A stretch of 10,489 bases of DNA. Origin: a virus (Duplodnaviria; Heunggongvirae; Uroviricota; Caudoviricetes). Both the position numbers and the translations under genes were made by a program. The stretch covers positions 1-10,489 of IMG/VR virus record IMGVR_UViG_2703718820_000012, one strand, 5' to 3'. Shown here one piece after another: positions 6,808-7,581 of the stretch. Under the pieces are notes generated by a model. The model was not told the origin of the DNA and ran no database searches. It saw only the letters and a program-made list of their open reading frames with translations. Numbering within the stretch: position 1 is the stretch's first letter; every line of letters begins with the position of its first letter.

Positions 6808-7581
6808 ATGGATATTACTGAGTTTCCTTCTGGAGTAATTGAACACCTTGGCTGGTATGTATACCGATTGATTGATCCGAGGGACGGAAGCACCTTCTAT
6901 GTAGGGAAAGGCAAAGGTAACCGCGTATTTGCCCATATGCGCGGTGAAGTGGCAGCGACTGATGATGACGAGTTACTGAGCAACAAGCTAAAGCAAATTA
7001 GAGAAATAAGGTTAGCAGGACTTGAAGTTATCCATGTCATCCATCGACACGGAATGACTGATGAAAAGACGGCGTACGAAGTTGAAGCTGCACTTATTGA
7101 TGCCTACCCTGGGTTAACGAATATCATGAATGGTGCTGGCAGCAATGAATTCGGCGCCGCGCATGTCAAAGAGTTGATAGCAACATATCAACCCGAAACC
7201 ATAATATTTCATCATAAAGCATTAATGATTTCCGTTAACAGAAGTGCAAAGGATTCAGAGCTTTATGATGCGGTTCGATTTAGCTGGCGCATTAATGTCT
7301 CTCGCGCCAGCCAAGCAGAAGTCATTCTTGCTACTGTAAGGGGAATCGTTCGAGGGGTTTTCATTGCTGATAAATGGCTCAAATCAACACGTGAAAATTT
7401 CCCTACGATGAAATACTGGGACGAGGATCCTGACTTTGAGGCAACACAAAGTTCTCGCTATGGTTTTGAAGGTCGAGAAGCCCAACCTGAAATAGCAAAT
7501 CTTTATCTTGGAAAAAAAATACCAGATGAATTAAGAAAAAAAGGAGCTATGTCCCCGGTCCGTTACTCACCTAATTTTTGA
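6808..7581 (+). CDS. GIY-YIG nuclease-domain protein with uncharacterised C-terminal domain
   Basis: N-terminal [29 protein letters not shown] fits the GIY…YIG…R…H pattern, followed by a conserved Glu ([11 protein letters not shown]) and Asn (GLTNIMNG). The C-terminal ~150 aa has no motif I can assign. No obvious SD before ATG 6808. Confidence 0.7.

Follow-up and report, generated by a model that had tools for sequence, protein, structure and literature searches.

CMoRE (Cytosine Modification Restriction Endonuclease) was first recovered, under the name PD-T4-3, from ECOR68 in the functional selection of Vassallo et al. 2022, where it is named in the figures and not in the main text. The gene considered here is located at positions 6808-7581 of a stretch of DNA of 10,489 nucleotides (positions 1 to 10,489 of the IMG/VR virus record IMGVR_UViG_2703718820_000012, Caudoviricetes), referred to, at its full length, as the window; judging from its sequence, it very probably (with a probability of about 95%) encodes CMoRE, a stand-alone type IV modification-dependent enzyme carried as cargo at a prophage end. 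It is known that CMoRE alone makes T2, T4, and T6 plate some five orders of magnitude less well, without abortive infection, and that in vivo it depletes T4 DNA and leaves the host DNA intact (PMC12923530). The enzyme binds and cuts DNA carrying 5-hydroxymethylcytosine (5hmC) or glucosyl-5-hydroxymethylcytosine (5ghmC or ghmC) and does neither with DNA carrying cytosine or 5-methylcytosine (5mC), so that T4(hmC) is sensitive to it and T4(C) escapes; cleavage occurs as CN11/N9G, with 2-nt 3' overhangs, needs two modified sites, and has no strict sequence requirement (PMC12923530). CMoRE is a tetramer, and breaking the tetramer abolishes defence; in the O157:H7 enzyme, Y17, Y19, and Y31 are each needed for defence and cleavage, and a 4A mutant of the acidic loop cuts unmodified DNA and is toxic (PMC12923530). 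In the clinical isolate NILS69, deletion of the gene sensitises the host to two T-even-type phages, and K-12 given the cloned gene is protected from four Tevenvirinae phages (bioRxiv 10.1101/2024.12.20.629700).

The assignment is based on matches that extend over the whole length of the 257-amino-acid protein. The PADLOC model PD-T4-3 (PDLC04031) was matched with E = 1.1e-139, residues 1-256 being aligned on profile positions 1-255 of 256, and PHROG 5356 with E = 4e-143; no NCBIfam model matched the protein. A phmmer search of the Protein Data Bank (PDB) sequences retrieved only two proteins, both matching at full length, i.e., chain 9u75_A of 9U75/9U8D (E = 3e-170) and chain 9u7u_A of 9U7U/9U7Z (E = 5e-150), which are the CMoRE crystal structures for Escherichia coli O157:H7 and for the avian pathogenic E. 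coli (APEC) strain O1, respectively (PMC12923530). In gap-free alignments, the window protein is identical to the O157:H7 enzyme at 251 of 257 positions (97.7%) and to the APEC O1 enzyme at 218 of 257 (84.8%), and identity of 97.7% to a crystallised enzyme means that the match is not due to chance. The original prediction, made from the letters of the window alone, had suggested a single-gene defence nuclease or a modification-dependent endonuclease, which is what has been demonstrated experimentally for this protein family (PMC12923530). The gene is not new, the enzyme having already been named, assayed, and crystallised; the label given to it by RefSeq/PGAP is only "LEM-3-like GIY-YIG domain-containing protein".

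The open reading frame (ORF) proposed by the original prediction is real, and the nearest in-frame stop on its 5' side is located at 6760, which rules out a start earlier than the ATG at 6808. The Pfam scan of its product returned LEM-3_GIY-YIG (PF22945) at amino acids 28-110 (E = 2.2e-14, 54.2 bits, cutoff 27) and nothing beyond it. Both halves of the protein had been read correctly: the first ~110 amino acids contain a GIY-YIG core with its residues in the order expected (Y17, Y19, Y31, R39, H43, E91/E93, and N105/N108), and the C-terminal ~146 amino acids, described as motif-free, gave no Pfam match even at E <= 10. The features of the gene are as follows (all on the + strand).

6808 to 7581, +: coding sequence assigned to CMoRE/PD-T4-3, with ATG at 6808 and TGA at 7579-7581 (774 nt, 257 amino acids).
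6808 to 7137, +: GIY-YIG catalytic half, containing the Pfam match and corresponding to the catalytic domain of the crystal structures (PMC12923530).
6850 to 6906, +: GIYxY-YIG motif, G15-W-Y17-V-Y19 ... F30-Y31-V-G33, located by a residue check.
6961 to 6972, +: acidic autoinhibitory loop D52-D53-D54-E55, with four acidic residues in a row kept.
7189 to 7566, +: predicted C-terminal modification-sensing domain, conserved core at amino acids ~128-253.

All the published functional residues are kept in the window protein, that is, Y17, Y19, Y31, the D52-E55 acidic loop, R80, V92, L96, and Y127; R80, V92, and L96, which belong to the dimer/tetramer interface, are conserved by sequence, and the same is true for R39 and H43. 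R39 and E91/E93 are conserved candidates only, the text of PMC12923530 giving no numbers for the catalytic Arg and Glu. The six differences from the O157:H7 enzyme are T51, E55, I133, Q169, N197, and Q226; none of them falls on a published functional residue, and N197 is the family consensus.

On the basis of the O157:H7 enzyme, the window protein would form a tetramer, organized as a dimer of dimers, whose C-terminal domain would bind DNA with 5hmC or glucosyl-5hmC and would not bind DNA with cytosine or 5mC. One dimer would read two modified cytosines located about 21 bp apart, and the N-terminal GIY-YIG domain, dependent on Mg2+ or Mn2+, would cut between them (CN11/N9G), leaving 2-nt 3' overhangs. 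The acidic loop DDDE (52-55), lying over the active site, would act as a safety catch excluding unmodified host DNA; the expected outcome would be the direct degradation of the incoming T-even phage DNA and the survival of the host.

The gene is embedded between an EcoRII-type restriction-modification (R-M) pair and a DNA invertase, an arrangement already noticed in the original prediction and borne out by the Pfam matches of the neighbouring genes. The region around it comprises the following features.

3719 to 4933, +: EcoRII-type restriction endonuclease (Pfam EcoRII-N and EcoRII-C; PADLOC REase_II, E = 1.9e-234).
4968 to 6443, -: Dcm-like C5 cytosine methyltransferase of the EcoRII-type pair, variable cargo (Pfam DNA_methylase and DNA_meth_N; NCBIfam PRK10458, E = 1.5e-279).
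6607 to 6628, -: remnant of a tRNA-Ser 3' fragment (anticodon-arm part), ~22 nt kept in the window, read as a relic of a prophage attachment site.
6607 to 6807, +: region of ~200 bp that travels with the gene, i.e., leader and presumed native promoter (alignment A1).
6744 to 6772, +: weak candidate sigma-70 promoter, TTGTGA-17 nt-TAATAT (8/12), read from the sequence only.
7642 to 8232, -: pinE-type DNA invertase, convergent with CMoRE (Pfam Resolvase and HTH_7).

The methyltransferase is divergent from the CMoRE gene, from which it is separated by 364-406 bp, and the neighbour at the 3' side of CMoRE is annotated as pinE in every genome inspected. In all the inspected loci carrying the allele type of the window, CMoRE and pinE converge at one end of a prophage of the myovirus type, or of a remnant of it, bearing Mu-like baseplate genes and an invertible tail-fibre segment. 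Among the cargo genes of an e14-like or Mu-tail-like prophage remnant, CMoRE comes last, at the end where pinE lies. The parallel with e14, which carries mcrA there, had been drawn from the sequence: it stands for the position just past pinE and does not stand for the orientation, mcrA being co-directional with pinE and the gene under study convergent with it.

Of 5,426 complete E. coli genomes, 823-838 (~15%) carry the gene with a nucleotide identity of no less than 96%, and alleles at least 99% identical occur in 287 records. The EcoRII pair of the window type, at an identity of at least 99%, occurs in only about 263 records and accompanies about one-third of the CMoRE carriers. The left neighbour varies: 40EC and ETEC1717 have the EcoRII-type R-M pair there, like the window, and O157:H7 PA20 and TH9F11 have an AraC regulator and no methyltransferase; the TH9F11 gene is 100% identical to that of the window at the nucleotide level. 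The varying left neighbour and the limited number of records with the R-M pair indicate that CMoRE is independent of the latter. The slot at the pin end acts like a defence hotspot of variable content.

The region 6607-6807 is near-identical in five genomes whose left neighbours differ, and the homology ends at about 6607 (alignment A1). In O157:H7 PA20 and TH9F11, the ~60 nt preceding this conserved module are 100% identical to annotated tRNA-Ser genes (L004 6762-6826, -), and ARAGORN detected no complete tRNA in the window and in the five loci. This fragment, read as the remnant of an attachment site (att), marks the outer boundary of the CMoRE-pinE module in O157:H7 and TH9F11. The genomes containing the EcoRII pair, the window included, keep only the anticodon-arm part of the fragment, which places the breakpoint inside the att remnant. 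Since the boundary of the module lies 200 bp before the ATG, at the tRNA-Ser att remnant, the R-M pair is a separate insertion. No genome of the collection contains the whole window, the best one covering 68% of it, and the E. coli allele is absent from the sequenced phages, whose homologues are all below 60% identity.

Two further loci are worth describing. In the APEC strain BEN2908 (L006, 11674-12447 and 13499-15388), an allele of the APEC O1 type, whose product is identical to the window protein at 218 of 257 positions, is located near a pin remnant, in the opposite orientation, with a DinI-like pseudogene and a DUF262 protein beside it, and downstream of the same P4-like satellite and HAD cassette as those of the window. 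The record NZ_CP104634.1 (L007), described as "plasmid" pHNAH212872-4, is a 30 kb circular molecule in which the chromosomal genes ykgM/O, ecpR-E, and paoABCD precede the EcoRII pair, CMoRE, and pinE. Rather than a plasmid, it probably represents a piece of chromosome that was excised or misassembled. Of the "plasmid" records with a 99% identical protein, the one inspected is this chromosome-like ecp-pao segment, with neither a phage nor a plasmid backbone.

As to the expression signals, the scan for promoters and terminators covered positions 6300-7800, with a threshold of 9/12 for the sigma-70 consensus. The sole site on the + strand is located at 6377-6404, inside the 5' end of the methyltransferase ORF, and over the whole scanned region promoter-like sites are only as many as predicted by chance; the 8/12 candidate at 6744-6772 is conserved in alignment A1. 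The Rfam scan of the window gave zero matches at gathering thresholds, the intergenic small ORFs are of chance size (the largest one of 48 amino acids), with no candidate for a controller protein, and a 20-nt inverted repeat (6440-6459/6823-6842, 80% complementary) was judged to be due to chance.

Some observations weigh against the idea that the window gene encodes a working CMoRE enzyme. We infer the activity of this allele from the near-identical O157:H7 enzyme, and two of the six substitutions, T51 and E55, are located in or beside the autoinhibitory loop. The absence of a Shine-Dalgarno sequence, already remarked upon in the original prediction, was confirmed (positions -22 to -4, AATTCTTCATAGATATTGC, contain no GGA, GAGG, or AGGA), no sigma-70 site scoring at least 9/12 lies within the conserved 6607-6807 region, and no terminator was found in the scanned region. 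Moreover, the APEC O1 allele is weak from its own promoter (PMC12923530), and the native host NILS69 restricts only some T-even-type phages (bioRxiv 10.1101/2024.12.20.629700). The allele might, then, be inactive, or its specificity might have shifted (e.g., toward the carbamoylmethyl-adenine DNA of Mu), through the six substitutions or through weak translation signals. This would fit with the facts that the activity varies with allele and promoter (PMC12923530) and that PD-T4-3Capno degrades both Mu and T4 DNA (PMC12366544). Nevertheless, such an outcome appears unlikely. The ORF is intact, all the tested functional residues and the family-invariant ones are kept, and the active APEC O1 enzyme shares E55 with the window protein, D52-E55 being identical in the two. 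The upstream region is conserved as well, and in the O157:H7 clone the native upstream DNA sufficed for defence (PMC12923530). Finally, the identical nucleotide copy in TH9F11 and the 287 records with alleles at least 99% identical argue for purifying selection.

An entirely different possibility is that the gene is an accessory of the adjoining EcoRII-type system, either as a Vsr-like nickase acting on the T:G mismatches that derive from 5mC deamination or as a second nuclease subunit. In E. coli, dcm is paired with vsr, and the gene is divergent with a Dcm-like methyltransferase. However, no Vsr domain was detected by Pfam, about two-thirds of the genomes carrying the gene do not possess this R-M pair, the pair itself is a separate insertion beyond the tRNA-Ser att remnant, and the enzyme neither binds nor cuts 5mC DNA, the cloned gene working alone (PMC12923530); these data leave such a role next to no probability. 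The Vsr repair endonuclease, mentioned as an aside in the original prediction, is to be discarded for the same reasons, there being no Vsr match and no overlap with dcm, and the gene, uncoupled from the methyltransferase across 364-406 bp, usually occurring without one. A type II GIY-YIG enzyme of the Eco29kI type was rejected too, since the methyltransferase pairs with the EcoRII-type endonuclease, and PA20 and TH9F11 lack a methyltransferase neighbour. Equally hard to sustain is the view of a free-standing, self-spreading GIY-YIG homing endonuclease of the I-TevI/Seg type, to which we assign a negligible probability. It derives from full-length homologues (38-45% identity) in the Serratia Moabite group, in Pseudomonas OBP, and in Klebsiella N1M2 that are annotated as 'putative homing nuclease', but these annotations are name transfers and not experiments. 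No NUMOD, IENR1, or helix-turn-helix (HTH) DNA-binding module was found by Pfam up to E <= 10, the gene is terminal prophage cargo placed outside any intron, intein, or phage gene cluster, and the published cleavage depends on modification, without a strict sequence requirement (PMC12923530). The assignment of the gene to CMoRE is, therefore, the one retained.

The homologues of CMoRE in jumbo phages (Serratia Moabite/2050HW/Kodama, Pectobacterium ParM-25, Pseudomonas OBP, and Klebsiella N1M2; hits H38-H54) extend over amino acids 1-254, with an identity of 38-45%, and their annotations are those of homing nucleases or of hypothetical proteins. Such proteins could serve the jumbo phages as weapons when hypermodified phages co-infect.

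The C-terminal domain has been called a distinct fold without homologues in sequence or structure searches, and all the CMoRE systems are said to carry GIY-YIG (PMC12923530). In the structural comparison of this domain, the listed figures are 5.9 for VcaM4I (an EVE-HNH restriction enzyme), 5.5 for the EVE domain of THYN1 with 5mC DNA, 5.5 for ASCH, 5.4 for PH1033 (EVE), 5.0-5.4 for YTH domains, 3.8-4.6 for the N-terminal domains of archaeal McrB, and ~2.5-3.6 for ATP sulfurylase and Lon N-terminal domains; Foldseek places the same families next, with probabilities of 0.2-0.8. A single-sequence AlphaFold model of the full protein was unusable (mean pLDDT, i.e., predicted local distance difference test, of 42). 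The Pfam models EVE, YTH, ASCH, and SRA did not match the window domain, and with a limit of E <= 10 none of EVE, YTH, and ASCH picked up a single one of 42 family members, so that the resemblance is a modest one and confined to structure. Membership of the C-terminal domain in the PUA-like fold is likely, though not proven.

With a profile of the C-terminal domain alone (alignment A4), a search of 1.84 billion representative proteins retrieved 1,661 representatives at E <= 0.001, 651 of which at E <= 1e-10, and many of the proteins matched are not GIY-YIG proteins. A word-indexed search with the same domain had returned GIY-YIG fusions and fragments only, and the exclusivity of the domain to CMoRE was overturned by the exhaustive profile search. 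The proteins in which a nuclease or an McrB-type module is joined to the sensor (P0083, P0082, P0145, and P0158) were matched with E = 1e-27 to 1e-41. The fusions are the following.

P0083 and P0082: HSDR_N-type PD-(D/E)XK nuclease and sensor.
P0145: PLD/NgoFVII-type nuclease and sensor.
P0158: N-terminal sensor and AAA_5/McrB_lid.
P0150: dual-specificity phosphatase and sensor.
P0087: ankyrin repeats and sensor.
P0132, P0176, P0182, and P0216: proteins of 630-700 amino acids with the sensor and apparent N-terminal transmembrane segments.

A myovirus PD-(D/E)XK fusion with the sensor was also found in BFVD (E = 1.6e-9). The sensors of the fusions are 35-50% identical to the C-terminal domain of the window protein, and Y153, A155, W160, W190, R217, F220, A225, Y233, G246, and P250 are invariant across them. 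The shared core starts at about 124-134, mostly at 128-134, so that Y127 lies at or outside its N-terminal edge. These fusions go beyond the published statements that the domain has no homologues and that GIY-YIG is present in all CMoRE systems. The same pattern is described, for EVE and other readers of the PUA superfamily in type IV enzymes, in PMC7897488 and PMC7641849; this similarity supports a sensor role independently of crystallography.

On these grounds, we tentatively propose, at slightly less than even odds, that the C-terminal domain is a very divergent PUA-like (EVE/YTH/ASCH-type) reader of modified bases, belonging to a large family without a Pfam model that has been shuffled among GIY-YIG, PD-(D/E)XK, PLD, McrB-type (with McrC), phosphatase, ankyrin, and membrane-anchored proteins. 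As a more speculative step, Y153, W160, W190, R217, F220, and Y233 may form a pocket for a flipped modified base. If this proposal were true, many uncharacterised type IV-like systems would be defined, the PUA-like sensor would be a handle for finding further modification-dependent systems, and the place where the modified base is bound in CMoRE would deserve a second look.

In P0132, P0176, P0182, and P0216, the sensor is located at ~105-255 and is followed by ~430 amino acids without a Pfam match; a membrane-anchored reader of modified DNA would be unusual. The P0158 gene is located at 5001-7639 of a metagenome contig of the European Nucleotide Archive (L008), where it is directly followed by a McrC-family gene and adjoins an ankyrin protein and a pair formed by an AAA_15/AAA_21 ATPase and DUF4276, which we take to be a PARIS-like combination.

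Other features of the window deserve a mention. A low-GC (31-34%) cassette at 780-2880 contains two convergent ORFs, 1186-1872 (+) and 1840-2673 (-), overlapping by 33 nt and encoding a HAD-IB phosphatase-like protein and a 277-amino-acid protein, respectively. In the latter, the N-terminal region weakly resembles dCTP deaminase/dUTPase, at a level below the Pfam cutoff, and a hydrophobic segment lies close to the C-terminus; no PADLOC or PHROG match was obtained for this protein. Of 5,426 complete E. coli genomes, only 5 contain the cassette, which comes right after the primase gene of a P4-like satellite and is a candidate for satellite cargo or for a defence pair. It is bracketed by direct repeats of ~200 bp, 85% identical (578-778 and 2884-3079), which consist of the 3' end of the P4-like primase, a hairpin with a T-run (GACCGGCATCTGCCGGTCTTTTTT), and downstream sequence; the ORF 2881-3093 derives, as a relic, from the C-terminus of the primase. 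A further direct repeat joins 3039-3153 and 3218-3332. ETEC1717 has no cassette at this place, the EcoRII pair coming next after the primase.

On the other side of CMoRE, a 68-nt inverted repeat (8258-8325/9733-9800, 84% complementary, with arms 1,407 nt apart) flanks two opposed sets of tail-fibre C-terminus and tail-fibre-assembly genes beside pinE, and the region 8258-9800 looks like a Pin-invertible host-range segment. In the ORF 9422-10489 (-), a baseplate N-terminus of the Mu Gp45 type (E = 5e-20) continues into a C-terminus resembling tail-fibre gp53. The baseplate-V and the tail-fibre genes of ETEC1717 and 40EC have four genes between them; since the two parts are fused in the window, its prophage is probably a deletion remnant.

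What the identification adds is mainly an annotation, since the label of a 5hmC/ghmC-dependent type IV restriction enzyme is now available for the locus; as a flagged gene, it is one more copy of a published defence enzyme, and little changes. In the window, CMoRE is stacked with the EcoRII R-M pair in the slot where e14 carries McrA. The fact that CMoRE ignores 5mC makes it compatible with the adjoining Dcm-like methyltransferase, and we infer that it complements EcoRII, which hypermodified phages evade, so that, between them, the two systems would cover phage DNA whether it is unmodified or hypermodified.

The comparison with the known systems places the gene as follows. The McrA enzyme of e14 (K-12), an HNH nuclease targeting 5mC and 5hmC, occupies the same slot at the prophage end and is likewise a single-gene type IV enzyme; it is annotated as methyl-directed, is co-directional with pinE, and is non-homologous to CMoRE. 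PvuRts1I and AbaSI are, like CMoRE, specific for 5hmC and ghmC and not for 5mC, and their cut, which leaves 2-nt 3' overhangs, falls between two modified cytosines at a set distance; however, they show no sequence match to the window protein, and their fold, consisting of a Vsr-like nuclease of the PD-(D/E)XK type and an SRA-like reader, is unlike that of CMoRE. The N-terminal GIY-YIG domain of UvrC and LEM-3/ANKLE1 share the catalytic fold of the CMoRE nuclease domain, to which UvrC is the closest structure according to the authors; in comparison with UvrC, whose role is in repair, CMoRE, whose role is in defence, adds a third tyrosine, a 15-residue acidic insert, and the reader domain (PMC12923530). 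As for VcaM4I (EVE-HNH) and the other fusions of the PUA superfamily (PMC7897488, PMC6765204, PMC7641849), the Pfam models EVE, YTH, and ASCH miss the CMoRE sensor, and the published ligand site of CMoRE lies at the edge of the domain and not in a pocket (PMC12923530). The PD-T4-3Capno enzyme of Capnocytophaga belongs to the same family, being 48% identical to PD-T4-3, single-gene, modification-dependent, and in need of its GIY-YIG residues; it is reported to cut Mu DNA (carbamoylmethyl-adenine) too, as shown for the Capnocytophaga enzyme and not for the E. coli ones (PMC12366544). The CMoRE enzymes of O157:H7 and APEC O1 share with the window protein the same length, the GIYxY-YIG motif, the acidic loop, the interface residues, the sensor domain, and the slot beside pinE. 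The window protein differs from the O157:H7 enzyme by six conservative or surface-type substitutions, and its gene has the EcoRII-type pair and the end of a P4-like satellite to the left, where O157:H7 has the AraC regulator.

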